Assembly: GCA_041736305.1 (NCBI GenBank)
Contig: JBGSTX010000220.1
Span: 1-27,068 of the forward strand
DNA: 27,068 nucleotides
Direction of reading: 5' to 3'
Origin: Oligoflexus sp.
GTDB taxonomy: Bacteria > Bdellovibrionota_B > Oligoflexia > Oligoflexales > Oligoflexaceae
Shown here: positions 4,493 to 22,304 of the stretch, in pieces
Layout: every line of letters begins with the position of its first letter
How positions within the stretch are numbered: the first letter of the stretch is position 1
Made by a program: the position numbers and the translations under genes
Notes under the pieces: model-generated
What the model was told of the DNA's origin: nothing
What the model saw: only the letters and a program-made list of their open reading frames with translations
Databases searched by the model: none

Positions 4493-4521
4493 TCAAATGT
4501 CGTTTGGGCAGGGTCAGCTTT

Positions 4522-4564
4522 AAAAACAAGAAAAGCCTGTCAGCCATGCGGCATGACAGGCTTT
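4522..4564 (-). terminator. Intrinsic terminator after lipoprotein C
   Basis: Minus strand reads AAAGCCTGTCA-TGCCGCATGGC-TGACAGGCTTT followed by TCTTGTTTTT. Confidence 0.85.
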
Positions 4565-4582
4565 GCGCTTGAGGCTTTTGCT

Positions 4583-5398
4583 TCAGCGACAGTCGCCCTC
4601 ATAAGAAGCTTCGGCGGCGACGAAGGCCGCGACGATAGATCCAATTTCACAGGAAAGGCTCTTGATGCATGCGGGTGAGAGTGCCGCTGCTGAGACACCA
4701 AGCTGACAGGCTTGGGCAGCTGGAACTGCACAGGCCGCTGCGACCATTGCACCGAAGGCTTCCGACTTGCGCGCTGCGCTACAATCGACCGTAGGCTCTT
4801 CGTCAGGCTTCTTGGCCTCATTTTTTTCACCGTCTTTGGCGCCGCCTTCGGCGCGACCTTTTACGGCGATGAGTTCGAGACCGGTATCGAGATCCTGATT
4901 AAATTCATCGTCCTGAGTACCCTGGTAAAACACTGCCAGCCCTCGATCGAGGAGTTTCTCTCGCAACTCAAGAATCTCACTGATCTGGCCCGAGTCGATC
5001 GTAGCTCCCACGGCAATATCGGGATCTTCACTGGCGTCTTCTATCAAGACGCGCATAGGAATGTCGCCGAAAAGTTCGCCTTCGCCGTCTTCGACTCTGA
5101 TCTGCAGGTCTTCTTCGACGTCTTGGAGATAAGCACCTTCATAATCGATGCGCTCATTGCGTATAGTAGATTGAACGCGATTATAAACGAGAAGCAGTTG
5201 CTCATAGAGAGTTCGTCCGAGAAAAGCTTGACCTGGATCAACTCCGGATCCCGAACTAAGTTCGTCGATACTAGGTGCTGGGACCTCAGTATTCTTGCTG
5301 AGACGGCTCTTGAAAAAGCCGGCTTTCGAGCAGCCCTGTATGCTTAGCGTTGAGAGTATGAAGAGGAAGACTATCCTCTGACTAAATATGAGTTTCAT
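4583..5398 (-). CDS. Predicted lipoprotein C: acidic N-domain plus 6-Cys, Ala-rich C-terminal segment
   Basis: ATG 5398 follows a GAGGGGG SD. Signal MKLIFSQRIVFLFILSTLSIQG-C. Shows similarity to lipoproteins A and B. Confidence 0.8.
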   Translation of the reverse strand: MKLIFSQRIVFLFILSTLSIQGCSKAGFFKSRLSKNTEVPAPSIDELSSGSGVDPGQAFLGRTLYEQLLLVYNRVQSTIRNERIDYEGAYLQDVEEDLQIRVEDGEGELFGDIPMRVLIEDASEDPDIAVGATIDSGQISEILELREKLLDRGLAVFYQGTQDDEFNQDLDTGLELIAVKGRAEGGAKDGEKNEAKKPDEEPTVDCSAARKSEAFGAMVAAACAVPAAQACQLGVSAAALSPACIKSLSCEIGSIVAAFVAAEASYEGDCR

Positions 5399-5468
5399 GG
5401 GAGCCCCCTCTAGTGCTTCTATCATCCGGTTCACTCGATAGACCGGCTATGGAAGAATATTTTCTCCC

Positions 5469-5496
5469 TTATCGGCAAATCGAGCCAAAAACTTTT
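5469..5496 (-). promoter_or_regulatory. sigma28 (FliA)-type promoter for lipoprotein C
   Basis: Minus strand AAAAGTTTTTGGCTCGATTT-GCCGATAA. Confidence 0.8.
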
Positions 5497-5685
5497 GCTT
5501 AGCTTCTAAGTACGTGATTCTTGAGCATAGCCTGCTGGAGAATTAGCGCTATGGGGCTTCGTTCTTAATTAGATAAAGCGTCCCCCTGCTTTCGTTTTCT
5601 AACCCAAATCCTACCGAAAATATGGAAATCCACCTTTTCTGACCCAGCTTAAGTCTTTGAAATGAGACAATTCATACGGAATTTC

Positions 5686-5712
5686 TAAAGTTTTTCCAAT
5701 TCTTGCCGATAA
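5686..5712 (+). promoter_or_regulatory. sigma28 (FliA)-type promoter upstream of lipoprotein A
   Basis: TAAA-N15-GCCGATAA, an exact consensus including the extended TAAAGTTT. Confidence 0.9.
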
Positions 5713-5970
5713 GGTAAATAAGCAATGCATGATAGGTAAGATTAGAGAAACAGACCGCAAGCGCCAGTTTAATTATTGGCTCCCGGATTACTTCTGGCCT
5801 TATCTCATCATGCAGAAAATTCGCTAAAAAGCTTAGAAACACTGTGAAATCCAACAAGGAGGAGTCTATCGTTTCGAAGTTCCGTCGTATTTTTGGCTTT
5901 TAGTTCTCTGTTCTCGTTTTTGGTTTTTATACTTTATTTTTGCAGCACAACACCTAGAGAGGGTACAGTC

Positions 5971-6978
5971 ATGAAAGTTAGTAAGTCGATCGTTCTTGGT
6001 CTCGCCGTAATGTTCGTCAGCACAGCATGTTCTTCAAAGCAAAGCGATTTCACCAGTGGCAAAGCTAAGACTCGGGTTCTCAAATCCGAAGACAGCGCAG
6101 CCGCAAAGGTCGAGATCGAAAAGATGGAAGGATTCGAAGCAAGCTACGCTAAGGCAGCAGAAGATTACCTCAATACCAGCTATTCAGATTACATGGCTGA
6201 TATGGTTAGCAAGGTAGAGAAGCACCTGGGTTCAGACACTATCGAAGTCGATGGAGTCACTATCGACGACCCGAGCGCACTTGTTGCTGACTTGGCAGAT
6301 CTTATGGCTTCTAGCGATAACATGTATGAAACCCCACGTGAATATTTGGAGGACATGGAAAGCTCTGTCGACACCACGAACTACCAAGAAGTTAAGGAAT
6401 ATTTGGCCTCAGAAAAAGACGCACTTACTGAAGTCAAAGAAGTTTTTGCCGAAGTTGATTTTGCTAACTTCAAAATCGTCGGCGAAGGCTCCTCAGAATC
6501 CTCAGAAGAAAGTAGCCAAGAATCTTTCTCTCTAGTCTGCGGTACAGCAGTTTCAACTCCTTACGGTAGTGCAACAACAACTGTTTCAGCAAGTGCTTCT
6601 AATGATGGTACTAATTGCACTACCGCCACTTCTGCTCCAGCTGCTGCCAAGCCTGTAGCTAGTACTGTCGCTGCTCAGGCTGCTGTTACTAAGAAGAAGA
6701 CAGCAACAGCAACAGCAGCGGCTCCCGCTACCCCGGTTACTCCCCAGAACATCGCAGCTTCCCAAACTTTGGTTCAGAATGCTCAGCCACTCGCGATCAA
6801 CGGTGAAAATGCATCGAATTACGCCTCCGCTGCTGTCGACGGAATCAGCAAATACATTACCACCAATGGTGTAAATGCCCAAGCTCAGTCAATGCAAGGA
6901 AACGTCGACCAAATCGTCAGCTTAGGCCTTTCGGATGCCTTGCTCGACCTTTCAATGCTTGGTATCATGCTTCGCTAA
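5971..6978 (+). CDS. Predicted lipoprotein A: acidic N-domain, Thr/Ala-rich linker, hydrophobic C-terminus
   Basis: ATG 5971 follows a GAGAGGG SD. Signal MKVSKSIVLGLAVMFVSTA-C. The ORF-track start at 5893 is unlikely. Confidence 0.85.
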   Translation: MKVSKSIVLGLAVMFVSTACSSKQSDFTSGKAKTRVLKSEDSAAAKVEIEKMEGFEASYAKAAEDYLNTSYSDYMADMVSKVEKHLGSDTIEVDGVTIDDPSALVADLADLMASSDNMYETPREYLEDMESSVDTTNYQEVKEYLASEKDALTEVKEVFAEVDFANFKIVGEGSSESSEESSQESFSLVCGTAVSTPYGSATTTVSASASNDGTNCTTATSAPAAAKPVASTVAAQAAVTKKKTATATAAAPATPVTPQNIAASQTLVQNAQPLAINGENASNYASAAVDGISKYITTNGVNAQAQSMQGNVDQIVSLGLSDALLDLSMLGIMLR

Positions 6979-7040
6979 TTTCAAGGCAAGTACTAAGAAT
7001 CGAGGGGCTGTATAGGCCCCGAAGATTCAGTCAGCAAAGG

Positions 7041-7077
7041 ACACAGATCGCCGCTTCCAAGCGGGATCTGTGTTTTT
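7041..7077 (+). terminator. Intrinsic terminator after lipoprotein A
   Basis: ACACAGATC-G-CCGCTT-CC-AAGCGG-GATCTGTGT-TTTT. A smaller GGGGC...GCCCC hairpin precedes it at about 7004-7020. Confidence 0.85.
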
Positions 7078-7169
7078 CAATTACGATCTCCATCAAGTTC
7101 AGCGTCACCCTGCTATCCCATAAAACTCCTCTACATTTTTCCAAAAGCTCCAGATACTCCAATTTCTCC

Positions 7170-7196
7170 TAAAGTTTTTCCGAAATTTGCCGATAA
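7170..7196 (+). promoter_or_regulatory. sigma28 (FliA)-type promoter for lipoprotein B
   Basis: TAAAGTTTTTCCGAAATTT-GCCGATAA (TAAA-N15-GCCGATAA). Confidence 0.9.
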
Positions 7197-7254
7197 GAGA
7201 TTTATAAAATATATAGATGCAATCATAAGATCACAAACTTTAGAGGGAAGCTTT

Positions 7255-8286
7255 ATGAAAACTCAGTTTAAGACTTACTTAGGTTCGTCTTGTATCAGCC
7301 TCAGTCTCCTGATGTCCACTGCGTGCAGCAAGCCGTCTGATTCTGGATTCCAAGGTCAGGCTAAGCGTGCAAAGATCGAAGTCAATAGCGAGGCTCTATT
7401 CGATACCAATGCTGACCAGGCTATCAAAGACAGATATGCAATCGAAATTCAGACTGTTTTGGATACTACTCAAGAAGTATTCATCAAAGACACTCAGAAG
7501 AAAATTGCCGCCACAGTCGGTGACGATACCTTAGAATATGATGGTTTTGAATACGCCTATCTTGAGACTTCAGTAGGCTTTCTTAGCGACCTTCTTGAAT
7601 GGAGCGAATCCGTCAGTCCTGATATGACTCTCCGCGAACAGCTAGAGGATTTGGGTGAAGACGTATCAGTCCTAGAGAATTACGACACAGCTATAGCATA
7701 CGCAAAAGACCTTTCTGACAATTCACTAGTTCCAGAAATGCAGGGTCTGTATCCACCGACTGATCCCGAATCACTTGAGGAATGGGGTTCAATCTTTGAG
7801 TCTGAGGACCAAGGAGGATCAGCAGCTGAGTTTAGCCTTTTGCAGAACCCGCTCCCGCAAAGAGCTCCAGTCCCACCAAAAGACTGCGGTAGCCATACTC
7901 GGGTATTAGAAGGAGGCGTCTGCAGAGACAAGACAGCTGCCGAATTTGCTAGTGGTGCGGCTTCTGGAGAAGCGAAGTCTCAAAAAGCCTTTAACCAAGA
8001 ATTGATCAAGAAAGGGACCGCAGAAAAAACGACTCTTTACGCTGTTATCGAATCAAAGCAACAAGGTTTAGACTGGCACGCAGGTCAGATGGATATGATG
8101 TACAACAAATACAAGGATACAAATCCTGAGACTGCCCAGAGCTATTTTAATCAAGCAGCAAAGTTTCGCCAAGATGCTGATTATGCTTTAGGAGCGGAGC
8201 TGGGTAACGCCGCCCAGGTCGTAACCCTTTGGGGCTTAGGTGAAATAAATGATATATTTGGCAAGTACATGAATCTATCCAAGTAA
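7255..8286 (+). CDS. Predicted lipoprotein B, paralog of A
   Basis: GAGGG SD and signal ending SLLMSTA-C. Shares G.DT.E.DG, RE.LED, NY and FSL motifs with A. Confidence 0.85.
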   Translation: MKTQFKTYLGSSCISLSLLMSTACSKPSDSGFQGQAKRAKIEVNSEALFDTNADQAIKDRYAIEIQTVLDTTQEVFIKDTQKKIAATVGDDTLEYDGFEYAYLETSVGFLSDLLEWSESVSPDMTLREQLEDLGEDVSVLENYDTAIAYAKDLSDNSLVPEMQGLYPPTDPESLEEWGSIFESEDQGGSAAEFSLLQNPLPQRAPVPPKDCGSHTRVLEGGVCRDKTAAEFASGAASGEAKSQKAFNQELIKKGTAEKTTLYAVIESKQQGLDWHAGQMDMMYNKYKDTNPETAQSYFNQAAKFRQDADYALGAELGNAAQVVTLWGLGEINDIFGKYMNLSK

Positions 8287-8303
8287 GGTTTAGTCCTAGA
8301 GAG

Positions 8304-8344
8304 AAATCCGCTCCCTGCAAAATGCACGGGGCGGATTTTTTTTT
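8304..8344 (+). terminator. Intrinsic terminator after lipoprotein B
   Basis: AAATCCGC-TCCCTGCAAAATGCACGGG-GCGGATTT followed by a long T run. Confidence 0.85.
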
Positions 8345-8368
8345 GTTCATTGGCAACAACAATCCTAT

Positions 8369-8396
8369 TCAAGTTTTTTACAATTCTTACCGATAA
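8369..8396 (+). promoter_or_regulatory. sigma28 (FliA)-type promoter for lipoprotein D
   Basis: TCAAGTTTTTTACAATTCTT-ACCGATAA. The spacer closely resembles the 5686 copy (CAATTCTT). Confidence 0.75.
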
Positions 8397-8421
8397 GAGT
8401 TAAAATACTGGAGGAATAGCA

Positions 8422-9309
8422 ATGACCAGATCAGGTCGCCTGATTTTGAGCGCAGGCATGCTCGCGCTCTTGGCCTTTGCCTGCAGAGGCCGCGAAATTC
8501 AATCATCAGTCGTTTTGTCTCAGCAAGAAACATTGCAAGACAAAAACATAGACGGCAAGGGGACGAAATCTGAGGTCTTGGACGAAGACTCTGTTTTCAC
8601 TACGTCTCAGTCTGCAGAAGAAGACGAGCTGATGCTGCCGGGCAGTGAAGCCCCTGAGGTACCTTTTCCTCGCCTGCCTTTTGCCGCCAAAGATGTGCCG
8701 GCTAGCAGCTCGGACTTGATCAATCTTACTCTCCCTATAGAGGCTGATACAGCTTACAGTCACTACGCTGCGAAATACAGCTCGACTAATGACTGTAACG
8801 TCACCAAAGGCTACTCGGTATTTGAACGATCTAAGCCTTTCGAAGTCGCTCAGGAACTCATGCCGAACGGACCCATCTTTCTTTGCATGATTGCCTACCA
8901 CTTTCCAAGCAAGCGCTGGCAGCCAGCGAGTGAGGCGCTGGTCTATAATTGGCAGAAAGTCCCTTTGAAACGCACGATCGAAACCACTTTCGATATGCTC
9001 CTACAAGCCTGTACGACTCCGACACGAACCAACGTTCGAAGTCTTGTGACCATCAACGGAACCTCGGGAACTTATCGCTGGACCGTAATAAACCCTCCTG
9101 GCTGCTCGATAGCATCTGGCACCGGCACCAGTCTCCTAACGAACATCAAGGTTTCTGGCCCGCTCATGGAAGGTAAGTTCATAGACTCTGGAGTTGAGGG
9201 CTGGTTTAAATTCAACTTCACTAACAACGAGAGAACCTCTTTCAAAGGTTCTTGGGGATTGGCATCCGACCTCAAAGTGATCGAAGGAGCCTGGAACTCA
9301 GACCGTTGA
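8422..9309 (+). CDS. Predicted lipoprotein D with beta-rich C-terminal domain, function unknown
   Basis: GGAGG SD, lipobox LLAFA-C, and an aromatic/Gly-patterned C-terminus (GWFKFNF...FKGSWG...GAWNSDR). Confidence 0.8.
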   Translation: MTRSGRLILSAGMLALLAFACRGREIQSSVVLSQQETLQDKNIDGKGTKSEVLDEDSVFTTSQSAEEDELMLPGSEAPEVPFPRLPFAAKDVPASSSDLINLTLPIEADTAYSHYAAKYSSTNDCNVTKGYSVFERSKPFEVAQELMPNGPIFLCMIAYHFPSKRWQPASEALVYNWQKVPLKRTIETTFDMLLQACTTPTRTNVRSLVTINGTSGTYRWTVINPPGCSIASGTGTSLLTNIKVSGPLMEGKFIDSGVEGWFKFNFTNNERTSFKGSWGLASDLKVIEGAWNSDR

Positions 9310-9311
9310 CT

Positions 9312-10568
9312 TTACGCTTCCATGCGCCGACCGATATGCTGCGCGGCAAGCCAGCCACCGGTCCAGGCGTTTTGGAAGTTAAATCCTCCCGTAACTCCGT
9401 CGATATCTATGATTTCGCCTGCAAAGTAGAGTCCTGGACAGAGTCGACTCTCCATGGATCTAAAGTCGATTTCACTGCGGGAAACTCCACCGGCTGTGAC
9501 AAACTCTTCTTTGAACACACCCTTGCCCGAGACCGTGAGTTCGCTCCGCCCGAAGCGTCGCGAGAGTCCGGCAATTTCTTTTTTATTCAGCTGCGCCCAG
9601 GATTTTCCTGGGTCTAGTCCCTCGAGCTCGCAGAGTCTCTCCCAAAAGCGTCGTGAACAGGGGAAGGGGTTTTCATTGCTTAAAATCTTCTTCGCATTCT
9701 TTTCTTTAGCTTTGAGCAGAATATCCTGCGCTGCTTCCACACTGATCTCGTGGCTCCACTGCACAAACAAGCGAGCCTTATAAGCCGAAGCCGCGAGTTC
9801 GCGCGCGGCAAAGGCCGAAAGTCGCAGGATAGCTGGACCGCTCAAGCCCCAGTGCGTGATCAGCGCTCCTCCCTCTTGGATCCAGCTGGTCTTCGCGCCT
9901 TCGATTTCAAGCTCAGCGCGAATGCGGGGAAAACTCTGCCCAGGCAAATCGACTAAGAGGGGATCAGCGATTTCAAAGGTGAAGAGCGAAGGGGCAGCCG
10001 GCACCAGCGAGTGACCCAGGGCTTTTGCCAGGTCTAGACCCATGGGCATGCTGCCTGTGGCTAGGAGCACGCTTCGGCTCTTCAGTATGCGGCCGTCCTT
10101 GAGCGTGAGCTCGAATCCAGTCCCTAGCCGTCTGACTTCAGTAACTAAAGCCTTGGTATGCAATTCAACTTTCGCTTTGGAACGGGCCGTCTCGAAAGCG
10201 TCAATAATAGTCTGCGAGCTGTTGCTCAAGGGAAACATCCGGCCATCGGCCTCTGTTTTTAGCTCGACTCCCCGCTCCTTGAACCAGCGCACGGTAGACT
10301 CAGGGCCGAAGTGATGAAAGGGCCCCAGCAATTCTTTCTGTCCCCGTGGATAATTTGTGACCAAACGCTTCGCTTCGAACTGGTGATGGGTGACGTTGCA
10401 GCGCCCACCACCCGAGACTTTGACTTTCGTCAGGACGCGCGGCGTGGCTTCGACTATTGAGACCCTCATACCGGGACGGGCTTCGGCTGCGTTGATGGCC
10501 CCGAAATATCCTGCGGCCCCTCCACCGATGACGATAAGATCGTAGGGGATTTGATCTAAGGCTTCCAC
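9312..10568 (-). CDS. HI0933/YhiN(BaiN)-family NAD(P)/FAD-dependent flavoprotein
   Basis: IGGGAAG, KVKVSGGGRCNVT, GRMFP, LITHWGLSGPAIL, VTAGGV and GLYFAGEIIDIDGVTGGFNFQNAW. GTG 10568 follows a GGAG SD and overlaps the end of menE. Confidence 0.93.
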   Translation of the reverse strand: MEALDQIPYDLIVIGGGAAGYFGAINAAEARPGMRVSIVEATPRVLTKVKVSGGGRCNVTHHQFEAKRLVTNYPRGQKELLGPFHHFGPESTVRWFKERGVELKTEADGRMFPLSNSSQTIIDAFETARSKAKVELHTKALVTEVRRLGTGFELTLKDGRILKSRSVLLATGSMPMGLDLAKALGHSLVPAAPSLFTFEIADPLLVDLPGQSFPRIRAELEIEGAKTSWIQEGGALITHWGLSGPAILRLSAFAARELAASAYKARLFVQWSHEISVEAAQDILLKAKEKNAKKILSNENPFPCSRRFWERLCELEGLDPGKSWAQLNKKEIAGLSRRFGRSELTVSGKGVFKEEFVTAGGVSRSEIDFRSMESRLCPGLYFAGEIIDIDGVTGGFNFQNAWTGGWLAAQHIGRRMEA

Positions 10569-11992
10569 ACTAACTCCATAGAGACGGGACTCGCCAACCA
10601 TTCATGATAGAAGAGGCGCGACGGTTTGTTGACTTCGGCGGTTTTATGCCAGTAGAAAGCTCGCGGCCACTTGATGCGCGGCAGACTTGCGGCCAGAATT
10701 TCGAGCACTCTGGTGCGAGGAGGGGGCTCCTCTAAGCCGCGATAGATAAGGACCGGCACTTCTCCATAATCCGCATCGGGCTGCGGAATGACGAAGAAAT
10801 CCCCACGTATCTTCAAGCTCTGCAGAGGTCCAAGAATTTCACTGGGCGCTAGGTTCTCCCCCGCAACCTGAAATATTCCATCGTCTCGTCCCTCGATGCG
10901 CAGAACTTTGTCGACTAGGCTGGCTCTATCGGCCGTTGCGTACCAGCTTCCCTGCTCTTCCCCAAAATCGCTCATAGCCTTATGAAAAACGCCTTCCTGC
11001 CACCAGCCTTGGCAGAGCGCAGCTCCTCGTAGCGCGAGACGCCCATCGATAAGCGCTGCCGTCCAGGGCTCTAAGAGCCTGCCAACCTCTCGTCTATCAG
11101 CTGGCAATTCACCGGGCGGAAAAGCAGCGATCTGCGAGGCAGTCTCAGTCGAACCATAGCTTATGGAAAGAGCTAAACCGCTGGCTCCTGCCGCATGCAG
11201 CAGGTCTTCAGGACAAGCCGCTCCACCGAGGATGATCGTGCGCGCCGCCTTCAGCTGCTCTCTGTTTTCATCGAGAGCTCGTGCGAGCTGAGTTGGCACG
11301 AGAGATATAAAGTTTGAGCGATGGTAATGGAGAGCCTGAGAGAGTTCCTGCGGCTTAAAGCCCGCGTGACAGCTGAGTCCACCTAAGAGACAGCGCAGGG
11401 GAATCTGGAGTCCACCGATATGGGCAATATCCAGACTCAATAGCCATGACTCGCCGGGAACGGCCGCATAGAACACGAGCGTCGCCAGAGCCGAGCTGAT
11501 AAGACTTCGCGCGCTGTGCTGAATAGCTTTCGGTCGACCCGTCGAGCCTGAACTATAGATCAGCAGACAAGGCTTATCGAGTTCGATAGAGAGAGGCAGA
11601 GTCGCAGCCAGAGGAAGTTCGCAGGGCTGCGGCAGGGAAAGGGCCCGCAGTTTCGCCGATGGCCTCGCTTCGTCTGAGGCCCAGAATTCAAAAGCAGCTT
11701 GAGCAAGGTAGGGGTCGATCTGCTGCCGCGAGAGGCGCGAAGGCAGAAGGGCCAGGATTCCTCCTTCACCCATAGCAGCCAGGACACTGACCCAAGTTTG
11801 GTAGGGCTTGGGGCAGTATAGGGCTATGAAGTCCCCCGCTTTCAAACCAGCTGTTCGCCATTGCGAACGCAAAAGGCTGACATCGGCGGCAAGTTCAGCA
11901 AAGCTACGCGTAAAGCCCGGCTCGTGCCAAGCCAGCTGCGAGCCGTAGCTCTTGAACTTCTCTTCCATCAGGCCACTATGTATGCCGTCCAT
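10556..11992 (-). CDS. menE: o-succinylbenzoate-CoA ligase
   Basis: AMP-binding motifs SSGSTGRPK, WLLSL..AHIGG, SLVPTQL, ILGGA, SYGSTET and GRDD, plus men operon context. Confidence 0.9.
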   Translation of the reverse strand: MDGIHSGLMEEKFKSYGSQLAWHEPGFTRSFAELAADVSLLRSQWRTAGLKAGDFIALYCPKPYQTWVSVLAAMGEGGILALLPSRLSRQQIDPYLAQAAFEFWASDEARPSAKLRALSLPQPCELPLAATLPLSIELDKPCLLIYSSGSTGRPKAIQHSARSLISSALATLVFYAAVPGESWLLSLDIAHIGGLQIPLRCLLGGLSCHAGFKPQELSQALHYHRSNFISLVPTQLARALDENREQLKAARTIILGGAACPEDLLHAAGASGLALSISYGSTETASQIAAFPPGELPADRREVGRLLEPWTAALIDGRLALRGAALCQGWWQEGVFHKAMSDFGEEQGSWYATADRASLVDKVLRIEGRDDGIFQVAGENLAPSEILGPLQSLKIRGDFFVIPQPDADYGEVPVLIYRGLEEPPPRTRVLEILAASLPRIKWPRAFYWHKTAEVNKPSRLFYHEWLASPVSMELVWKP

Positions 11993-12001
11993 CGTTTTCT
12001 C

Positions 12002-13099
12002 CTAGGTCGAGCGAGGCCATATTGGCCTCGAATCCAGGATTTCAAGTCCGGGGACCGCCTCGGGACCCAATCTTGGACTCTTCGGCCAAGCTGCATGAGC
12101 GGCATAGGGCGCCAGAGGACCCTCAGCTTTCACTCCGCTAAACGCATGTATAGTTCCCAGCCCTAGGGCCTCAGGCTTATGTACGATGCGTCCATAGAGC
12201 CAAGCATAGAGCTGCAGACTCAGCTCGCTTTCGTAGGCATTGCTCAAGACGACTCGGCCCATGCGCGCATTGAGCGTCTTCATCCAGACGATGCTGCGGC
12301 TCAAACCTAGACGATTTGGTTTGAGCACCGCAAGCTCTGGCAGCGGCTGCGTGTGCAGAGGATCTAAACCGCTGAGGCTTTCATCCATAGCCAGCGGCCA
12401 TTGCGAACCAAGGACTTGACGACTTTCCAGGGCTGCTTCTTCGAAATAATCGATAGACCAGTCGCCGCGCTCAAGAAACCTTTTCCAAGAGAGTAGACCC
12501 GTCTCGTTCAACCCTCGGTTCGCGTCGAGTCGGAACCTAGCCTCAGGTCCGAGAAGTGAGCGCACTTCCCCTAAAAGATCTTGCTCGAACGCGGCTTTCT
12601 CGCGGCCAATTTTGACTTTAATACATTGAATCCCGCGTTTGCGGAGCTCATAGAGAGCCTGCCACCAGGCTGCATCGGGTACGCGCGGGAGGTGAACAAG
12701 TGCGCTGTGTTCAAAGCTATCGCTGCATGGTGCAGCGGGTAGCTCGAAAAGCCCTCGCTCGATGGCTAGGTGAAGGAGGAGCATTTCAACGCTGCTCTGA
12801 ACAGCTGGACTCGTGCGAGGGAAATTCAAACCAAAAAAATCTGCGCCGACGCTCCAGAGATTCCAATCCACATTCCCGAGGGCTGGCCCCACCGCCTGCT
12901 CCCAGTAATCCATCGCGTCTTTGAGAGTCTCTCGGTGCAAACCCGCTAAGGGAGCACACTCGGCAAAAGCGCGTCGCCCCTCTCTATCCTCAGCTTCGAT
13001 GAAGAAACCAAGCCTATCGCTGAGGCACACCGACCCTATCGTCAAAGGTAGGAGCAGGGGACGGCGATACGCGTGCAAGTCTAGGCGAAAGCTTTTCAT
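12002..13099 (-). CDS. menC: o-succinylbenzoate synthase (enolase superfamily)
   Basis: ECAPLAGLHRE, KVKIG, RLDANR, YFEE, AMDESL and VLKP. ATGA overlap with the menA stop at 13096-13099. Confidence 0.88.
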   Translation of the reverse strand: MKSFRLDLHAYRRPLLLPLTIGSVCLSDRLGFFIEAEDREGRRAFAECAPLAGLHRETLKDAMDYWEQAVGPALGNVDWNLWSVGADFFGLNFPRTSPAVQSSVEMLLLHLAIERGLFELPAAPCSDSFEHSALVHLPRVPDAAWWQALYELRKRGIQCIKVKIGREKAAFEQDLLGEVRSLLGPEARFRLDANRGLNETGLLSWKRFLERGDWSIDYFEEAALESRQVLGSQWPLAMDESLSGLDPLHTQPLPELAVLKPNRLGLSRSIVWMKTLNARMGRVVLSNAYESELSLQLYAWLYGRIVHKPEALGLGTIHAFSGVKAEGPLAPYAAHAAWPKSPRLGPEAVPGLEILDSRPIWPRST

Positions 13100-14004
13100 A
13101 CCCAAAGCAGCCAAGCGAAGGCGAGAGCGTAAAAGAAATTGAAGAGCGCCGTGCGTTTCAGCGCCATGTTCAGCGAAGATGCCGGCCCTCTCAAGAGGGG
13201 GGCAATCCCTTTGGCTATAAGCACGATGAGCAGCGCGACTATCGCCAGACCGGCAAAGAACTTTTGATGCAGCAGAGCATAGCTGAGGATGAGCCCGCTG
13301 CTGAGAAGAAGCAAAGCGAGCGGCAAGAGACGACCGGCCTTCTCGCCGACGATCGTTGCGAGAGTATGCTTTCCGGCCCGCGCATCGGTGCGGATATCAC
13401 GAGCGTTATTGATCGCCATGATAGCTGCTGCGATGAGTCCTGGTCCTAGGCCCCAAAAGGCCACAGCTCCATCGATGGATTGCGTGTGCAGATAGTTGGT
13501 TCCCATCACGGCGATGGGCCCGAAGAAAATGAGAGCGACGACTTCGCCGAGCGCGAAGTAGGAAAGCGGTGCTGGCCCTGCGGTGTAGGCATAGGCAGCA
13601 AGCGCGCAGAGTAGGGCTACGGCCGGCATCAGCCAGTCTTGATTTCGCCAGAAGAGGCCAGCGGCAATGAGCGCCGCCGCTCCGAAGCAAAAGCTATAAG
13701 CTTTTCGAACCGCTTGCTGACTCAAGAGCCCTCGCTGAACGACGCGTAGCGGACCCAGTCTTTCGCCAGCATCGACCCCTTTTTGAGCGTCCTTGGCATC
13801 GTTGACGAGATTCGCTGCCGTCTGCAGGAGCAGCGCCAGCAGCAGGGCCGAGAGACTGGCGACGATACTCAAGCCTTCTTGGGTCTGCAGAGCGCTGAGA
13901 CGGGCGAAGCCGAGTCCTAAAATAACCGGGCCGATGCCGGCGAGCAGCGTCGGTGGTCGGATCGCCATCAACCAGACTTGCCAGGTAGGAAGTGATTTTT
14001 CCAT
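13096..14004 (-). CDS. menA: 1,4-dihydroxy-2-naphthoate prenyltransferase (UbiA family)
   Basis: W..AIRPPTL, ANLVND..D..KGVD...RLGP, YTAGP.PL.Y..LGE and NNARDI..D..AGKHTLA. TGATG overlap with the menD stop. Confidence 0.93.
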   Translation of the reverse strand: MEKSLPTWQVWLMAIRPPTLLAGIGPVILGLGFARLSALQTQEGLSIVASLSALLLALLLQTAANLVNDAKDAQKGVDAGERLGPLRVVQRGLLSQQAVRKAYSFCFGAAALIAAGLFWRNQDWLMPAVALLCALAAYAYTAGPAPLSYFALGEVVALIFFGPIAVMGTNYLHTQSIDGAVAFWGLGPGLIAAAIMAINNARDIRTDARAGKHTLATIVGEKAGRLLPLALLLLSSGLILSYALLHQKFFAGLAIVALLIVLIAKGIAPLLRGPASSLNMALKRTALFNFFYALAFAWLLWV

Positions 14005-15764
14005 CAGGGTATCCTCGGGTTCTGGCTCGTCAGGTGACGGAGCTGATTCTGGTAGAGCCGATCCGCGTCGGGGCTTTGACGACATTCGATGAGCCGCATG
14101 CCACCGGTCTTGAGACTCTGACCGTAGGCATGCTCAAACTCTTTCTGACTCTGGCAGGCGATATAGTCAACTCCGGCCATCGCCGCGATTCCTTCGAAAT
14201 TAAATGTATGCGGCGTAGAGATCCAAGGATCTTTCACTTCGGGGTAGGCAGCAATAGGCAGCGTTTCAAAGATCCGCCCACCGCTGTTGTTGACGATGAC
14301 GACGATGAAAGTTCCCGTGAGACCACTTGTCTTCAGACTCAAGATCGAATTGAGATCGTGCATCATTGAAATATCGCCGAGCACCACCGTCCAGCCCTGG
14401 CGCTTGCCTCGGGCTACACCGAGCGCCGTGGCTAGCAAGCCCTCGATCCCACTGACCCCTCGATTCGCTTGAATCTCGGGCCAAGCCCCCGCAGCGTAGC
14501 ACCAGGAATCGAAGGCGCGAATAGCGGTCGAATTCCCGAGAAAGAGTCCGTGATCCTCCCGAGGACTCAGCTCGATAATCGTCTCAGCCACGGCCGCAAA
14601 GTTGAATTCTCCCGGCTCCATAGTCGCAAGCTTGTTCACTAAAGATCGCGCGCTTGCCGCGAGATCAGCTGGGGGAGGCTTAATTTCAAGATCTGCTAGC
14701 GCGACCGCCACACTGGAGAGTTCGCTATCAAACTGCAGTCTTTGCAAGAGATGAGCGGGATCCTGGGGCCCGATCTCACTGCTGAAAACCCAGTACGAGG
14801 CTGGCTCGTGACGGGCGATGAAATCGTCGAAGTATCTCGATACCAATCGACGACCCAGATGGATGATCATATCGGGACGGTACGAGCTGAGCGCTTCGAG
14901 CATCAGCGGATGCTGCAGATCGAGAATCTGCTGAGGAACCATGCCCTTCAAACCCGAACCCACATCGGCGAAGCTCGGCCAGCCTAGCTTCTCTTGGATA
15001 AATCGTGCTGCTTGCCTATCCTTTTCATTGTTGAAACGGCCCAGCAGCAGAAATCCGCGCTTGGCTTCGCCGACTGCATTTCGAAACAATGCGGCACTCG
15101 CGGCATCGAGAGGCGGACGCTCGCGCCGGGCGATCTGGGTCGGCATCTTTCTGAGCTCTTTATCCCAAGCTTCTACTTCACCCGGACCGTCTTTAACTTG
15201 CACAGGATCGAGCGGCACGTGAAAGGGCACATTGAGGTGCACGGGCCCTTGAGGTGCTGCCAGAGCTGTTTGCAGAAGGTCGCGAGCCACGTCCATCCAG
15301 GCACGGCCATCGAAGTCCTTCGAAGGAACAGGAAAATCCAGACTCTTCTTGGCAAAGCGACCGTAGATTTGTCTTTGATCGACGACCTGCTGAGCAGCGG
15401 CATGAACCAGCTCAAAGGGTCGGTCTGCTGTGACGACGAGCATGGGAACTTGTTCGACAGAAGCTTCTATCAGCGCCGGATAATAATTTGCGCCAGCCGT
15501 ACCTGAAGTACAGATCAGCACCGCCGGTAGACCTGTGGCCTTGGCGTAACCAAGCGCTTGGAAGGCGCCGGCGCGCTCGTCGAAGCAAGAGACCAGCTCG
15601 ACGTCGCTGCGCGCCTGCAGAGCGGCGATGAGGGGTGCATCCCGATAGCCTGGTGATATGAAATAAGTGCTGACACCGAGCCTACGCCAGGCAGCGATGA
15701 GAAGCGAGGCAGCCAGCATGTTCCAGTTTTTTGCAGCTTCGCTAGGTAGCGCATGAGCGGTCAT
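14004..15764 (-). CDS. menD: SEPHCHC synthase (ThDP-dependent)
   Basis: SPGYRDAPL, DERAGAF.ALG, CTSGTA, TADRP, GPVHLN.PF, NRGVSGIEG, GDIS..HDLN and VNNSGG.IF. Confidence 0.95.
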   Translation of the reverse strand: MTAHALPSEAAKNWNMLAASLLIAAWRRLGVSTYFISPGYRDAPLIAALQARSDVELVSCFDERAGAFQALGYAKATGLPAVLICTSGTAGANYYPALIEASVEQVPMLVVTADRPFELVHAAAQQVVDQRQIYGRFAKKSLDFPVPSKDFDGRAWMDVARDLLQTALAAPQGPVHLNVPFHVPLDPVQVKDGPGEVEAWDKELRKMPTQIARRERPPLDAASAALFRNAVGEAKRGFLLLGRFNNEKDRQAARFIQEKLGWPSFADVGSGLKGMVPQQILDLQHPLMLEALSSYRPDMIIHLGRRLVSRYFDDFIARHEPASYWVFSSEIGPQDPAHLLQRLQFDSELSSVAVALADLEIKPPPADLAASARSLVNKLATMEPGEFNFAAVAETIIELSPREDHGLFLGNSTAIRAFDSWCYAAGAWPEIQANRGVSGIEGLLATALGVARGKRQGWTVVLGDISMMHDLNSILSLKTSGLTGTFIVVIVNNSGGRIFETLPIAAYPEVKDPWISTPHTFNFEGIAAMAGVDYIACQSQKEFEHAYGQSLKTGGMRLIECRQSPDADRLYQNQLRHLTSQNPRIP

Positions 15765-15800
15765 GGAATAGTCTCGAGTCTAAGAGCCCAAGGGCGTCTG

Positions 15801-17225
15801 CTAAAAGGATTCTGCTGCAGCATCACAGACTTTAGGGCGTGAGCGGGCCGGCAGCAAACCGAGGAAATTCTGCATCTTCTGCTCGGTTTCGCGCCATTCG
15901 GCGAGGGGTTCGGAAGCCTCGACGATGCCAGCCCCGGCGAAGACATGCAGCTGTTTTTGAAAGCAGAGGGCCGAACGAATGCCTATCGCAAATTCTCCTG
16001 CAGCACCAGCGATAAAGCCGATGTAACCGGCAAACCAACCGCGCTCGAAAGCTTCATGACGGCGTAGAAAGTCCAGGGCTGTAGGTCGGGGCACGCCGCC
16101 GACGGCAGGAGTCGGATGCAAACGTTGCAGCAATCTAAATCCTCGCGCCTCATCGAGCGAAGCCCACTGCCCTGAAAACCGACTGCGCATATGCTGAACG
16201 TGCTCGAGCTGCAGAAGTTTCTCTTCTTCCCCGGCGGTAAATGTCAGCCCTTCTCCGCTGAGGACCTCGGCTATGGCTTCGCTCACGAGACGGTGTTCAC
16301 GCTTTTCTTTCGGTGAATCCTGGAGCTCGCGGGCCGCAGCGCGATCTTGCTGCAGAGTTCCGACCCGACTCCGCGTGCCGGCGATCGCATCGAGCTCGAA
16401 ACCGCGGCTGTTCCAAGCCAGCAGACGTTCCGGAGAACGCCCCATAAACACGCGCCCAGATGGACTTCTCAGTCCGAAAACAAAAGCCTCTTCGCGGGTG
16501 TCGAGCAAGTGCTCTAGCCACTGAGTCCAGCTGTAGTTATGGGCAAATTCGAGTTTCACGCTGCGACTCATCACGACTTTGTCGAGCTTCTCATTGCGCA
16601 TGCATTCAATAGCCTGCTCGATGCTTTCGATCCACTCTGCCTGCTCAGGAATATCGATGCGGCGCTCGTAGGCGGGCAGAGCTAAGGAGCGAGACGCGGA
16701 GCGAGGGTTTAAGGCCAGCAGTGCCTTGATCAACTCTTCCGCCTTTTCCTGCAGTTCCACCTGCTTATCGAGATCGGAGCAGAGATAAAGATCGCAGCCA
16801 TCGGCACCCAGGCGCAGAAGGACGCCAGGCAGCAGCCACTGGGACGAACTCATTTCTCCCCAAAGCTCGGAAGGCTGCTCGGCGAAGAAAGGCTGACCAC
16901 CGAAAATAAAATGATCGTGCACCCCTTCCTGGAGTGAGGCCATCTCCGTCGCGCTCAAAAGCAAGAGGATATCCCAGCCTAACCAGAGATCAGCACCGGG
17001 CTCTCGACTCTTCCAGCAGAAAGCCCAACCTTCCGTCTGGGTGAGAAAAGTCCAGGGGGGCAGCAGGGCTTGGGCGCTTCCCTTGAGCCGCCACTTGCCG
17101 CGCACGAGCTTTCTTGGGCCGAGCTGCTGCTGGCTCCACTCCACGGCTTCGAGTGAATCGTCCAGCTGCTCTTGCTTATCTTTTGCTAGCGGCGCTGGCC
17201 CTGATCTTCCTCTCCCTTCCATCAC
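15801..17225 (-). CDS. menF: Isochorismate synthase
   Basis: KVVMSR, SPERL, AIAGT, KEKREH, LHPTPAVGG.P, RGWFAG, IRSA and FAGAGIV. The start overlaps the menG stop. Confidence 0.9.
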   Translation of the reverse strand: MMEGRGRSGPAPLAKDKQEQLDDSLEAVEWSQQQLGPRKLVRGKWRLKGSAQALLPPWTFLTQTEGWAFCWKSREPGADLWLGWDILLLLSATEMASLQEGVHDHFIFGGQPFFAEQPSELWGEMSSSQWLLPGVLLRLGADGCDLYLCSDLDKQVELQEKAEELIKALLALNPRSASRSLALPAYERRIDIPEQAEWIESIEQAIECMRNEKLDKVVMSRSVKLEFAHNYSWTQWLEHLLDTREEAFVFGLRSPSGRVFMGRSPERLLAWNSRGFELDAIAGTRSRVGTLQQDRAAARELQDSPKEKREHRLVSEAIAEVLSGEGLTFTAGEEEKLLQLEHVQHMRSRFSGQWASLDEARGFRLLQRLHPTPAVGGVPRPTALDFLRRHEAFERGWFAGYIGFIAGAAGEFAIGIRSALCFQKQLHVFAGAGIVEASEPLAEWRETEQKMQNFLGLLPARSRPKVCDAAAESF

Positions 17226-17929
17226 TGCTTTACGCCTCGATAGAGGTTGACGATTCCAAAGCTGAGACTCTGGAACTTGGTATGGCTGTAGCCGGCCTCA
17301 CGCATGAGGGCGGTAAACTGCTCGCCATGGGGAAATTCTTCTATGGTTTCATTAAGATAGCTATAAGCCGTCGCATGACCGGAAAGGAGCCGACCTATGA
17401 GCGGCAGACAATGCCGCAGATAGAAGAGATGCAGCTGCCGAAAGAGTTTGGACCGAGGCAGGGCAAATTCTAGGATAAGACAGACTCCACCTGGTTTGAG
17501 CACCCGGTAAATCTCTTTGAGACAAGTCAGCGTACTAGGAACGTTACGAATACCGAAAGACATCGTCGCCGCATCAAAGCTGCGGGAACGGTAGCGTAGC
17601 TGCTGAGCATCTCCGACTTCAAAGCTGATTTTCCGCGTGAGCTGACGAGCTTTCACTTTCTGCTCACCCAAGGCAATCATTCCCCGCGAGAGGTCGAGGC
17701 CGACTATATGCTTAACAGCGGGACTTTGGCTAAGTTCAATTGCCACATCACCCGTTCCTGTCGCCAGGTCTAAAACCTGGAGTCCGCTCCTATCTGGCAG
17801 AGCCCGTCGCAGAGCTCGACGCCAGCCTCGATGCAGACCTAAGGAAAGCACGGTATTAATGATGTCATATCGACTCGCTATGGCGTCGAAGATTCGGTAG
17901 GATTCGCTTTTTGCATGGATAAGAGTCAT
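17222..17929 (-). CDS. menG: Demethylmenaquinone methyltransferase (UbiE/MenG)
   Basis: FDAIASRYD..N..LS.GLH..W, LDLATGTGD, SFGIRNV, RVLKPGG..ILEF and AYSYL..TIEEFP. Confidence 0.95.
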   Translation of the reverse strand: MTLIHAKSESYRIFDAIASRYDIINTVLSLGLHRGWRRALRRALPDRSGLQVLDLATGTGDVAIELSQSPAVKHIVGLDLSRGMIALGEQKVKARQLTRKISFEVGDAQQLRYRSRSFDAATMSFGIRNVPSTLTCLKEIYRVLKPGGVCLILEFALPRSKLFRQLHLFYLRHCLPLIGRLLSGHATAYSYLNETIEEFPHGEQFTALMREAGYSHTKFQSLSFGIVNLYRGVKQ

Positions 17930-19731: not shown

Positions 19732-19808
19732 TGGGCAAGATTTACCACTCCTGTATGCATTAGAATCTTGAGGAGCGACTCTTTTTTTTGAGCGCTATCA
19801 GGAAGCTT

Positions 19809-22304
19809 ATGAGCGTGAGATACCAGGGCAAACGAATAAGAAAGCTAGGGCGAGGACAAGCCTTCCTCAGCCTATTTCTGCTTTTCTGCCTATGGTCCTG
19901 CCGCCCGAGTGCTCTGACGCCCATAAACAAAGAAATCGATTTTTCTATAATTCCTGAGCCTGTTCATCGCTCCCTGACGATCGATGAAGTCCAGGATTCG
20001 ATCGATTGGCTACCGCTTACACGCGACCGGGATCCGCGAACTCTGCACTCGCCAAGTGCCTGGGTTCGTCTCAATGTACCTGAGCTCAGTGCCTACCAAA
20101 ACCCGGCGCTCCTCCTCGGTCTCTGCCTCAACATCAACCAGATTTACTTCCAAAAAGAAAAACTCCTCGATCATCAACTGGAAGCAAATGGTCGCATGAC
20201 TGCTCGTCGTTTAAGCGTGCCCTATGTCTCTCTCAGCCAGGCGGCCTCTGGAAAACCCCTCTATCTCAACCTCGTTAATTCGCAGCGTACCGGTCTACAC
20301 CCTGACTGCAGGGAGCTGGCTTTTGGAGAAGAGCTCAATGTCATTCGCCGCTTTGCAGCCTTCCAAGCCCTCGACATCACCACGGGCCTGATCGTGCTCT
20401 TTCTCGGCCTGGCTGGATGCGCCATGGCTCTCGTCGGTAGACGTCTCGTCTATTTCTTCTTCGGCTCCTTTGCCACTAGCCTCGGCCTCACCTATCTGCT
20501 CGCATCCCATCCCATTCTTTACTATTATGCCGAGAAAGACTGGATTTTCGATTTCTGGCACTTCGCAGCCATGCTCATACCCGTGTCCTTTTGCTTTTTC
20601 TTCCAAGAGACTCTGCCTACCCGCAATCGCTTTCTAGAAACCGTCAACGTCGGCCTCCTGCTCATGGTTGCCGGCAGCGTATACTTCTACTTTGAGAAGG
20701 ACTGGACCGGACTCGAGCGCTATCGACTCGTCTACCTGGGCCTCAGCGTCCCCGTCGGTATCGCCGTCGTTGTCCGTAGCCTCAAAAACTCCTTCGGCAG
20801 CGCCCTAACGTCCAAGCGCTACCTCGGCTTTGGTCTCTGCCTTTTTCTGCTCTCAGCTGGCGTCGATCTGCTCTCCTACCTATTGGACGGGCCGATGTAC
20901 ATGGTCTCCTGCTGGGGAATTCTCTTACTGATGAGCTTCATGCTCATCTTCCTCGTCCAGTTCATGATTGAAAAAGAACAGACTCTCGAGCGGGAAAAGC
21001 GCCGCGGCCTTGAAGAAGATACCCAAAAATTGGAAGACCTGATCAACACCCGCACCGCTCACCTCAACGAGAAGACCCGTCAGCTGCAGAGCTCCAATGC
21101 CGAACTGAGCGACAAGAACGTTCTCATGTCTCTCACCTACAAGCGTCTTGAAGACCTTATCTTTCAAAAAGATGCTCTGCTTAAGCAGGCCGCGGCTATT
21201 GGTAGCAAGCAGGTTCCCCGCTTTACTCAGTCCCTCAAGCAGCTTTTCGAAGGAGGCCTCAGATCGCAGCTGCAGACAGCGAGCATAGAGGCCCATACCC
21301 TGGCGAGCCAACTCGAGCCTTTTGCTAAACTCTACGAAGACGTGCGAGCCGTGAATAATAAACTCGTCTGGCTACTGGAACCGAGTCCGCACTTCAGCGC
21401 CCTGATTCGCACCGCTCTGGGTGGCAGCAAAGTCTCGGTTCGCTCCTTCCAAGAGCCCGAAGCCTTCATGGCGGCTCTCATGCTGCAAAGGCCGGATCTC
21501 ATCGTCATCAATGCTGCATTTCGCCATATCCCCGAACTAGTGGTCCGTGATTTCCCTGAGACCGAAGTCATGCTCTGCACGCGCGAAAACTTTGCGGAGC
21601 ACCTCTCCTTCCTACAGTCGCAGCCAGCTATCTGCCATCTCCTCTTCCTCGACTCCGAAGATAGAAGCTTCATCCAGAAGAACCTCCTGGTATCGACGAC
21701 CAAGCTCCTCAGCAACGACATCTTCGGCATAGAGAAGTACCTCAACTGGGGCGTCGACATCAAAGAGCATATCGTCACCGGCAGTGAAACGCGCGATCAG
21801 ATCAGCGAGCAGCTCCGACTTCACCTGACGCGCAGCGGTGTGCAAAGCTCCCATATTCGTACTGCCGATCTCATTTGCGAAGAACTTCTGATGAACGCTG
21901 TCTACGATGCTGCCGTCGATCGCAACACCGGCCTTGCGAAATACAATCATCTGCCTCGAACGCAAGCCGTCGAGCTCGAACCCAACGAATTCGGCAAGCT
22001 CCGCTATGCCTTCGACGGACAGCTTATCGCTATTTCGGTAGAAGACCCTTTCGGGGGCCTGACGCGCGACATCGTCCTTAAGTACCTTCGATCCTGTTTC
22101 GAGGGGCAGTACGGCAAGATCAATGAGATAGAAGGAAAAGGGGGTGGCGGCATGGGCTTCTTCCAAATTCTCTCGACGGCCGATCTACTAGTAGCCAACC
22201 TGCGGCCAAAGCAAAAAACCGAAATTTTAGCTCTGATCAACGTCAATACGAAGTCTCACATTCGCCAGCAGGGCGGGTGTTTTCAGTTCTTCATCGAAAG
22301 GTGA
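19809..22304 (+). CDS. 7TM-DISM-like sensor with coiled coil, pseudo-receiver and RsbW-like GHKL ATPase domain
   Basis: Possible lipobox LWS-C, ~150-aa extracellular region, 7 TM segments, S-helix-like LINTRTAHL, N-box EELLMNA, ISVED.FGG and G-box GGGGMG. ATG 19809 follows an AGGA SD. Confidence 0.8.
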   Translation: MSVRYQGKRIRKLGRGQAFLSLFLLFCLWSCRPSALTPINKEIDFSIIPEPVHRSLTIDEVQDSIDWLPLTRDRDPRTLHSPSAWVRLNVPELSAYQNPALLLGLCLNINQIYFQKEKLLDHQLEANGRMTARRLSVPYVSLSQAASGKPLYLNLVNSQRTGLHPDCRELAFGEELNVIRRFAAFQALDITTGLIVLFLGLAGCAMALVGRRLVYFFFGSFATSLGLTYLLASHPILYYYAEKDWIFDFWHFAAMLIPVSFCFFFQETLPTRNRFLETVNVGLLLMVAGSVYFYFEKDWTGLERYRLVYLGLSVPVGIAVVVRSLKNSFGSALTSKRYLGFGLCLFLLSAGVDLLSYLLDGPMYMVSCWGILLLMSFMLIFLVQFMIEKEQTLEREKRRGLEEDTQKLEDLINTRTAHLNEKTRQLQSSNAELSDKNVLMSLTYKRLEDLIFQKDALLKQAAAIGSKQVPRFTQSLKQLFEGGLRSQLQTASIEAHTLASQLEPFAKLYEDVRAVNNKLVWLLEPSPHFSALIRTALGGSKVSVRSFQEPEAFMAALMLQRPDLIVINAAFRHIPELVVRDFPETEVMLCTRENFAEHLSFLQSQPAICHLLFLDSEDRSFIQKNLLVSTTKLLSNDIFGIEKYLNWGVDIKEHIVTGSETRDQISEQLRLHLTRSGVQSSHIRTADLICEELLMNAVYDAAVDRNTGLAKYNHLPRTQAVELEPNEFGKLRYAFDGQLIAISVEDPFGGLTRDIVLKYLRSCFEGQYGKINEIEGKGGGGMGFFQILSTADLLVANLRPKQKTEILALINVNTKSHIRQQGGCFQFFIER

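Follow-up and report, generated by a model that had tools for sequence, protein, structure and literature searches.

The sigma factor sigma28 (FliA) reads the class 3 flagellar promoters of Escherichia coli and Salmonella, the consensus of which is TAAAGTTT-N11-GCCGATAA. To our knowledge, Bdellovibrio bacteriovorus is so far the only organism with experimental evidence for a sigma28 regulon that extends well past the flagellar genes. In this organism Karunker et al. (2013) mapped 140 attack-phase promoters and reported the motif TTAAG-N16-CCGATA in 92 of them (PMC3627812), which agrees with what the original prediction for the DNA discussed here had stated, namely that FliA-type promoters of Bdellovibrio mark attack-phase genes beyond the flagellar ones. 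The same authors propose FliA as the global regulator of the attack phase, with surface proteins, proteases and uncharacterised genes under its control; in their promoter table only two genes are annotated as "lipoprotein", one of them with a FliA site (PMC3627812). We here deal with a stretch of 27,068 nucleotides (nt) from Oligoflexus sp., called the window throughout. It corresponds to contig C49 of a draft genome that comprises 392 contigs and 5,022,171 bases, with a guanine plus cytosine (GC) content of 51.3%. Within it, four consecutive lipoprotein genes each stand behind a motif of the sigma28 type. Quite likely, the four motifs are working promoters for the sigma28 (FliA) RNA polymerase, each driving one lipoprotein gene, and the genes are co-expressed when FliA is released.

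B. bacteriovorus and Oligoflexus belong to the same phylum and share the same bipartite motif, which in Oligoflexus reads T(A/C)AAG-N15/16-CCGATA. In both it precedes about 100 mostly non-flagellar genes, related to pili, signalling and the surface or uncharacterised. The published Bdellovibrio data comprise mapped starts and attack-phase expression (PMC3627812), whereas the Oligoflexus set is predicted from the sequence; also, the strongest sites in Oligoflexus precede lipoprotein genes of the orphan type, and one array combines four of these. With the class 3 promoters of E. coli and Salmonella, sites 2 and 3 of the window are identical at all 16 box positions, including the N11 spacing, and FliA and its anti-sigma factor FlgM are encoded here as well. 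The genes, however, are different: those of the window are not flagellar, chemotaxis or motor genes, and the flagellin genes have poorer sites than the lipoprotein genes.

The description of the type species presents Oligoflexus as non-motile and filamentous; flagella were not observed (PMC4179278). According to another report, certain Oligoflexus-like bacteria are flagellated and act as pests of microalgae (PMC12865303). In our literature search no paper came up that links Oligoflexus or Oligoflexia to FliA or a sigma28 regulon.

Four promoter sites in one array

A site was considered as sigma28-type if it had a -35 box TAAA(GTTT), a -10 box GCCGATAA and 15 nt in between, which equals N11 between the extended boxes. 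Scoring was done over 16 box positions against the enterobacterial consensus TAAAGTTT-N11/12-GCCGATAA. The pattern AAGTTTTT-N9-11-RCCGATAAG has exactly four matches in the window, 5468-5494 (-), 5688-5713 (+), 7172-7197 (+) and 8371-8397 (+). Each of them faces an open reading frame (ORF) with a lipobox, just as the original prediction had it when it placed the motif in front of each of four consecutive lipoprotein genes. Dinucleotide-preserving shuffles of the window yielded a match in 0 of 100 cases, and a reversed control pattern had 0 matches. In the whole genome there are seven strict copies of the motif, and four of these fall within this 2.9-kb stretch. Nowhere else in the genome do such sites cluster as densely; apart from the array, one weaker triple was seen, otherwise pairs. 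The ATG follows the end of the -10 box at a distance of 70, 258, 58 and 25 nt in genes 1, 2, 3 and 4, respectively; in the genome at large the spacing between site and start codon is mostly 25-70 nt. The features of the array are compiled in Table 1.

Table 1. Features of the lipoprotein gene array; positions are those of the window, promoters are scored over 16 box positions, and matrix scores are in bits
Feature	Position	Strand	Characteristics
Sigma28-type promoter 1	5468..5496	-	AAAAGTTT-N12-GCCGATAA; 15/16; matrix 23.5, genome rank 25; predicted start ~5461
Sigma28-type promoter 2	5686..5712	+	TAAAGTTT-N11-GCCGATAA; 16/16; matrix 29.8, genome rank 1; predicted start ~5720
Sigma28-type promoter 3	7170..7196	+	TAAAGTTT-N11-GCCGATAA; 16/16; matrix 29.6, genome rank 2; predicted start ~7204
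Sigma28-type promoter 4	8369..8396	+	TCAAGTTT-N12-ACCGATAA; 14/16; matrix 25.7, genome rank 14; predicted start ~8404
Gene 1, lipoprotein P0001	4583..5398	-	271 amino acids (aa), lipobox IQGC; acidic N-domain, Cys/Ala-rich C-terminus (from translation)
Gene 2, lipoprotein P0002	5971..6978	+	335 aa, lipobox STAC; acidic helical N-domain, Ala/Thr/Gln-rich tail (from translation)
Gene 3, lipoprotein P0003	7255..8286	+	343 aa, lipobox STAC; paralogue of gene 2 (from translation)
Gene 4, lipoprotein P0004	8422..9309	+	295 aa, lipobox AFAC; disordered tether, Ig-like sandwich, 8-stranded barrel; without own terminator
Intrinsic terminator, gene 1	4521..4564	-	hairpin and U-tract; fold of 4515-4585(-) -28.2 kcal/mol, z -3.35, 0/200 shuffles as good
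Intrinsic terminator, gene 2	7037..7082	+	hairpin and U-tract; fold of 6979-7085 -44.5 kcal/mol, z -5.93
Intrinsic terminator, gene 3	8297..8347	+	hairpin and U-tract; fold of 8287-8360 -29.5 kcal/mol, z -5.24
Predicted gene 2 leader, unusually long (~250 nt)	5720..5970	+	258 nt from -10 box to ATG, against 25-70 nt for the others

The motif in the genome

Genes were called with a crude ORF caller of our own (4100 genes, 83.5% coding), and the counts that follow are approximate; over-long ORF calls place some true promoters in the "coding" class. Sites with at least 14 of 16 matches occur 20 times in the 0.49 million strand-positions that make up the 250 nt upstream of genes on the same strand (40.7 per megabase, Mb), 11 times in 8.38 million strand-positions of coding DNA (1.3 per Mb) and 10 times in 1.17 million strand-positions of other intergenic DNA. 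Just upstream of genes they are about 30-fold denser than in coding DNA. An equal frequency of the motif elsewhere, the outcome that would tell against the prediction, is thus not what was found. The core CCGATA faces a downstream gene 179 times, as compared to 113 times for its reverse complement.

A first position matrix proved to be over-fitted to its seeds and was replaced by consensus counting and by a matrix trained outside the window. The 54 training sites, none of them from C49, had been picked by their fit to the consensus, so that the numbers obtained with this matrix are likewise approximate: at a threshold of at least 16 bits it finds 90 unique forward-upstream sites, versus about 4 expected from the density in coding DNA. 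Among 4225 scored positions the sites of the window rank 1, 2, 14 and 25. Of course, AT-rich intergenic DNA, which in this array has 38-41% GC, favours T-rich words such as AAGTTTTT, of which the genome has 433 copies, and the four sites could be chance matches in such DNA. This explanation was rejected: the shuffles, the scarcity of strict matches genome-wide, the enrichment upstream of genes in the correct orientation and the empty reversed control leave it a negligible probability.

Which genes stand behind such sites? Outside the window, 61 genes behind sites with at least 13 of 16 matches qualified for this question, and 60 were examined. For 35 of the 60 genes no Pfam family was found (E 1e-5). 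The others include a PilB-type ATPase of type IV pili, CheV, PilZ (two genes), EAL, response regulators and a sigma54 activator, further a CHASE2 cyclase, PP2C, a Ser/Thr kinase, Lon and an OmpA-family protein. Behind the best sites one thus finds mostly genes that are not flagellar; the CheV gene carries a site with 14 of 16 matches. Lipoprotein genes are over-represented. By a conservative lipobox rule they account for 12 of 31 genes behind sites of at least 14/16, compared with 393 among the 3997 genes of the background (p 2e-5), and when the four genes of the window are left aside, the figure is 8 of 27 (p 0.0035).

A second divergent, back-to-back pair of near-consensus sites (16/16 and 15/16) was seen on contig C341 at about 9108-9305. 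It would drive a secreted protein of 227 aa that belongs to no known family and a lipoprotein with an alpha/beta-hydrolase fold.

FliA and the flagellar genes

A gene of the sigma28 family, on which the prediction depends, is present. Exactly one FliA scores above the curated cut-offs, with 288.8 versus 189.6 bits for TIGR02479 and 272.7 versus 201 bits for NF005413; two weaker sigma hits are RpoH and a sigma factor like those of the extracytoplasmic function (ECF) group. FlgM is also encoded (60.4 bits, cut-off 25), FlhA is found on the FliA contig, and the search for flagellin-N gave 8 hits in the genome. FliA is common in the family: of 22 Oligoflexaceae genomes screened, it was detected in 21, including G006, in which the coordinates of the P0004 homologue match those of O. 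tunisiensis Shr3.

Moderate sites (11.8-15.9 bits) are located 52-80 nt upstream of three of the six clear flagellin genes. Together with the site at CheV, they tie the motif to the flagellar and chemotaxis system.

The sites might be working promoters and still be read by another alternative sigma factor of similar specificity, e.g., by the FliA-like or ECF-like sigma encoded on C205; the gene set would then be unrelated to flagellar timing. This second sigma has a weak match to FliA/WhiG (52 bits, below the cut-off of 189.6), and at the flagellin genes the motif is only weakly developed; both facts fit such a view. We nevertheless regard it as improbable: the boxes agree with the sigma28 consensus in as many as 16 of 16 positions, there is a single sigma above the cut-offs of the FliA family, and the motif is present at CheV and at three flagellin genes. 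Also, the same motif marks FliA-type promoters in the published Bdellovibrio set (PMC3627812).

The lipoproteins and their relatives

All four products have lipobox signal peptides (residues 20-24), and four out of four satisfy a PROSITE-like rule; in the protein alignments the lipobox cysteine is invariant. Pfam and NCBIfam searches revealed no family for any of P0001 to P0004. A HisG match in P0002 was sub-threshold and was taken as noise. P0003 retrieved only itself from 5.8 billion proteins, P0002 three homologues from 1.84 billion representatives, and P0001 two homologues of 64-65% identity from 5.8 billion proteins. The start codon of P0002 is fixed, because the best homologue shares the N-terminus MKVSKSIVLGLAV. 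In the 21 other Oligoflexaceae genomes the P0001 family was not found, and the P0002/P0003 family has weak relatives in only one of them, G004, which contains three copies. Metagenome scans with the alignments A3 and A5 for DNA around relatives of genes 1-3 found nothing.

P0002 and P0003 are 25% identical over 246 aa, and the N-domain of the P0001 family matches the P0002/P0003 family in hhalign with a probability of 96% (E 3.4e-9, 146 columns, partly signal peptide). By these alignments genes 1-3 are distant, old paralogues. Gene 4 is unrelated to them. The term "orphan", which the original prediction had applied to all four genes, holds in so far as genes 1-3 are almost without relatives; it does not hold for gene 4, which has a genus-wide family, nor within the group of genes 1-3, which are distant paralogues of each other. 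The Ala/Thr-rich tail of P0002 (window 6618-6700) shows in-frame indels between strains, 12 nt in total at about 6618-6627 and a 6-nt ACAGCA at 6699/6700; contig depth spikes at 6618-6700, where other contigs match the low-complexity repeat.

The family of gene 4 was found in 11 of the 21 other family genomes at E of at most 1e-3. Its homologues with a labelled source are all from Oligoflexus, including O. tunisiensis Shr3 and the FD111 draft, and so far the family has been seen only in Oligoflexus-labelled genomes. A scan of the genome contigs with P0004 alone gave 0 loci, with alignment A1 it gave 7. The homologous proteins are 25-36% identical to P0004 over the whole alignment and have four invariant cysteines besides that of the lipobox. 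Across the "genus", identity is no higher than 57-62% even for the housekeeping neighbours, which means that these Oligoflexus genomes are far apart. For gene 4, the only gene for which conservation of the promoter across homologous loci was examined, six of the eight closest homologues have a site with 13-14 of 16 matches just upstream. The alignment of seven homologous upstream regions shows T-AAGT, CCGAT-A, part of the ribosome-binding site and the ATG to be invariant; G006, too, has a gene 4 homologue with promoter. That the promoter is conserved despite the divergence of the protein is, in our view, the strongest single argument for a working promoter.

A duplicated promoter-gene unit would offer another reason why the motifs look alike; they would then be inherited copies that need not all function today. 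Indeed, genes 1-3 are paralogues, and T-rich stretches such as CAATTCTT recur in the spacers of sites 2, 3 and 4. The proteins of genes 1-3, however, have drifted down to 15-25% identity, and the 16 box positions still show 14-16 matches, i.e., they are at or near the consensus; neutral decay would have erased them. Moreover, gene 4 is unrelated to genes 1-3 and keeps its promoter across seven genomes, and comparable sites precede about 90 other genes. That duplication alone accounts for the likeness of the motifs is therefore very improbable. It was also proposed that the array consists of modular promoter-gene-terminator cassettes with strong terminators of their own at three of the four genes. 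The terminators are there, with hairpin and U-tract after genes 1, 2 and 3; the modularity has to be seen differently, since these three cassettes are ancient paralogues and not unrelated modules.

A second strain, X2, was available from another study in the form of contig pieces. It has the whole stretch in the same order and differs by about 1.6% over most of the island and by 0.2-0.9% in the flanks. Among the differences listed up to 6336, with 66 further ones not listed, none falls into the boxes of site 1 or 2; at promoter 1 one spacer base is changed and no box base. The changes are too few for this sparing of the boxes to be a significant footprint.

A number of observations weigh against working FliA promoters, and the approximate nature of the counts given above is one of them. 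The flagellin genes are the classical targets of FliA; their sites (on C79, C129, C215, C5 and C227) reach only 3.8-15.9 bits, as compared to 23.5-29.8 bits for the lipoprotein genes, and upstream of the other three clear flagellin genes and of flgM no site worth naming was seen. That lipoprotein genes have the best sites and flagellins weak ones or none is the reverse of the usual pattern. Two of the eight gene 4 homologues have no good upstream site. The relatives of P0004 within the genome, a paralogue of 39% identity (C390:6564-7223) and a weaker relative (C232:30017-30313), have poor upstream sites (8.3 and 11.6 bits), and the C390 paralogue in particular is a counter-example. Nor was a good upstream site seen for the three copies in G004, which are distantly related to genes 2 and 3. 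Finally, site 2 is 258 nt away from gene 2; it could drive something else within the leader, or gene 2 may have a second promoter that is nearer.

The structure of P0004

The structural model of P0004 has a mean predicted local distance difference test score (pLDDT) of 74, with values of at least 74 for nearly all of residues 80-295. Residues 22-75 form a disordered tether, residues 76-181 an Ig-like sandwich and residues 182-295 an 8-stranded barrel. The top matches in Foldseek are NHBA, fHbp, HpuA and PmSLP-1, with E of 3e-4 to 7e-3 and a template modelling (TM) score of about 0.25. In VIA-align, P0004 reaches Z 8.0-8.4 with the barrels of NHBA, fHbp, TbpB and HpuA; unrelated 8-stranded barrels (designed barrels, OmpA, OprF, Cap15) score higher, with Z 10-12. 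With the surface lipoproteins of the Neisseria type, i.e., fHbp, NHBA, HpuA, the TbpB lobes and PmSLP-1, P0004 shares the lipobox, the long tether, the beta-sandwich and the C-terminal 8-stranded barrel. It differs from them by the low TM score and sequence identity (7-15%) and by the better scores of unrelated barrels. As judged from the model, the likeness seems to be one of general architecture only; it implies neither a ligand nor a route of export to the surface. The tetratricopeptide repeat (TPR) protein of the window matches TPR_Slam with 36 bits, as one of 23 overlapping generic TPR hits; no search aimed at Slam (DUF560) was made. The model of P0002, built from 8 sequences, has a mean pLDDT of 38.9 and is too poor for a fold search.

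A possible role of the array

If the four motifs are indeed FliA promoters, the following events may be envisaged. Transcription of each gene would start about 7 nt past GCCGATAA. Genes 1, 2 and 3 would yield separate transcripts that end at their own terminators, and gene 4 a fourth one that runs into the convergent gene. Upon release of FliA from the anti-sigma factor FlgM, all four proteins would be made together, and the cue would be the same as for the late flagellar genes. This cue would also switch on about 100 mostly non-flagellar promoters, among them those of the type IV pilus ATPase, of CheV, of PilZ and EAL proteins, of response regulators and of many exported proteins that fall into no known family. 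As to the four products, they are lipid-anchored envelope proteins. Those of genes 1-3 may be described as fast-evolving paralogues with an acidic, mostly helical N-domain, that of gene 4 as a tethered sandwich-plus-barrel protein that is presumably built like known surface lipoproteins. We infer the start sites, the dependence on FliA, the exposure at the surface and the connection with a phase of motility or dispersal.

The sequence itself, the comparisons with relatives and the statistics of the genome support the reading of the original prediction, and with it the view that the array is part of an expanded FliA regulon of the Bdellovibrio type in another class (Oligoflexia) of the same phylum (Bdellovibrionota). 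The same promoter logic in Oligoflexus suggests that such an expanded regulon is old within the phylum, and also that the genus, described as non-motile, has a motile or dispersal cell type not yet observed. More speculatively, Oligoflexus might have a hidden life cycle of two phases. Its FliA-driven motile cell, made for dispersal or attack, would wear an envelope with rapidly evolving, lineage-specific lipoproteins, and the array would be the example with the strongest promoters. We consider this a tentative idea, rather doubtful at present. If it were true, the takeover of a cell-type programme by FliA would predate the split between Bdellovibrionia and Oligoflexia, and the orphan lipoproteins would be candidate factors for contact with prey or host; attacks on microalgae have been reported for some Oligoflexus. 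In practical terms, the array offers concrete, testable promoter-gene pairs, and its four monocistronic cassettes, with their consensus promoters and strong terminators, would be convenient for monitoring the activity of FliA in these organisms.

Transcript ends, composition and neighbourhood

Downstream of gene 4 the fold gave no terminator (z +0.68); the stop codon of this gene is 2 nt away from that of the convergent gene. The leader of gene 2 folds no better than its shuffles (z -0.19), and an Rfam search found no family anywhere in the window. Among the listed differences between strain X2 and the window, one falls into the leader stretch (5714-5970), versus 14 in the adjoining 5399-5685. 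The stretch 5714-5970 might serve as a long leader with a regulatory function or else give rise to a small RNA of its own.

The island has 47.1% GC and its flanks 54.6% and 56.4%; it is, as had been noticed at the outset, more AT-rich than the neighbouring trp and men genes. Within the island, gene 1 has 52.5%, gene 2 47.6%, gene 3 45.5% and gene 4 50.7%. The AT-richness is thus due to the intergenic DNA and to genes 2 and 3, while genes 1 and 4 are ordinary. The two flanks had been named correctly: on the left there are anthranilate synthase I (trpE) and the TPR protein, on the right an HI0933-like flavoprotein and the menaquinone operon. In the one complete relative, the HI0933-like and TPR genes lie 3.5 Mb apart, and at 16 flank-gene loci in relatives no cassette was found within 1.5 kb of either gene. 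The island can therefore not be traced as an insertion between conserved neighbours. In G006 the match to the 811-aa TPR protein of the window (locus L108, C1:4573006-4575345) contains one in-frame TGA.

The menaquinone operon (window 10556-17929) looks complete, with menE, a menC-like gene, menA, menD, menF and a ubiE/menG methyltransferase gene. This fits menaquinone-7 (MK-7), which the description of the type species gives as the major quinone (PMC4179278). Farther on, at 19788-24694, there are two adjoining large ORFs, one of 838 aa without a Pfam family and one of 805 aa with a 7TMR-DISM membrane sensor; a response-regulator gene comes next on the other strand.

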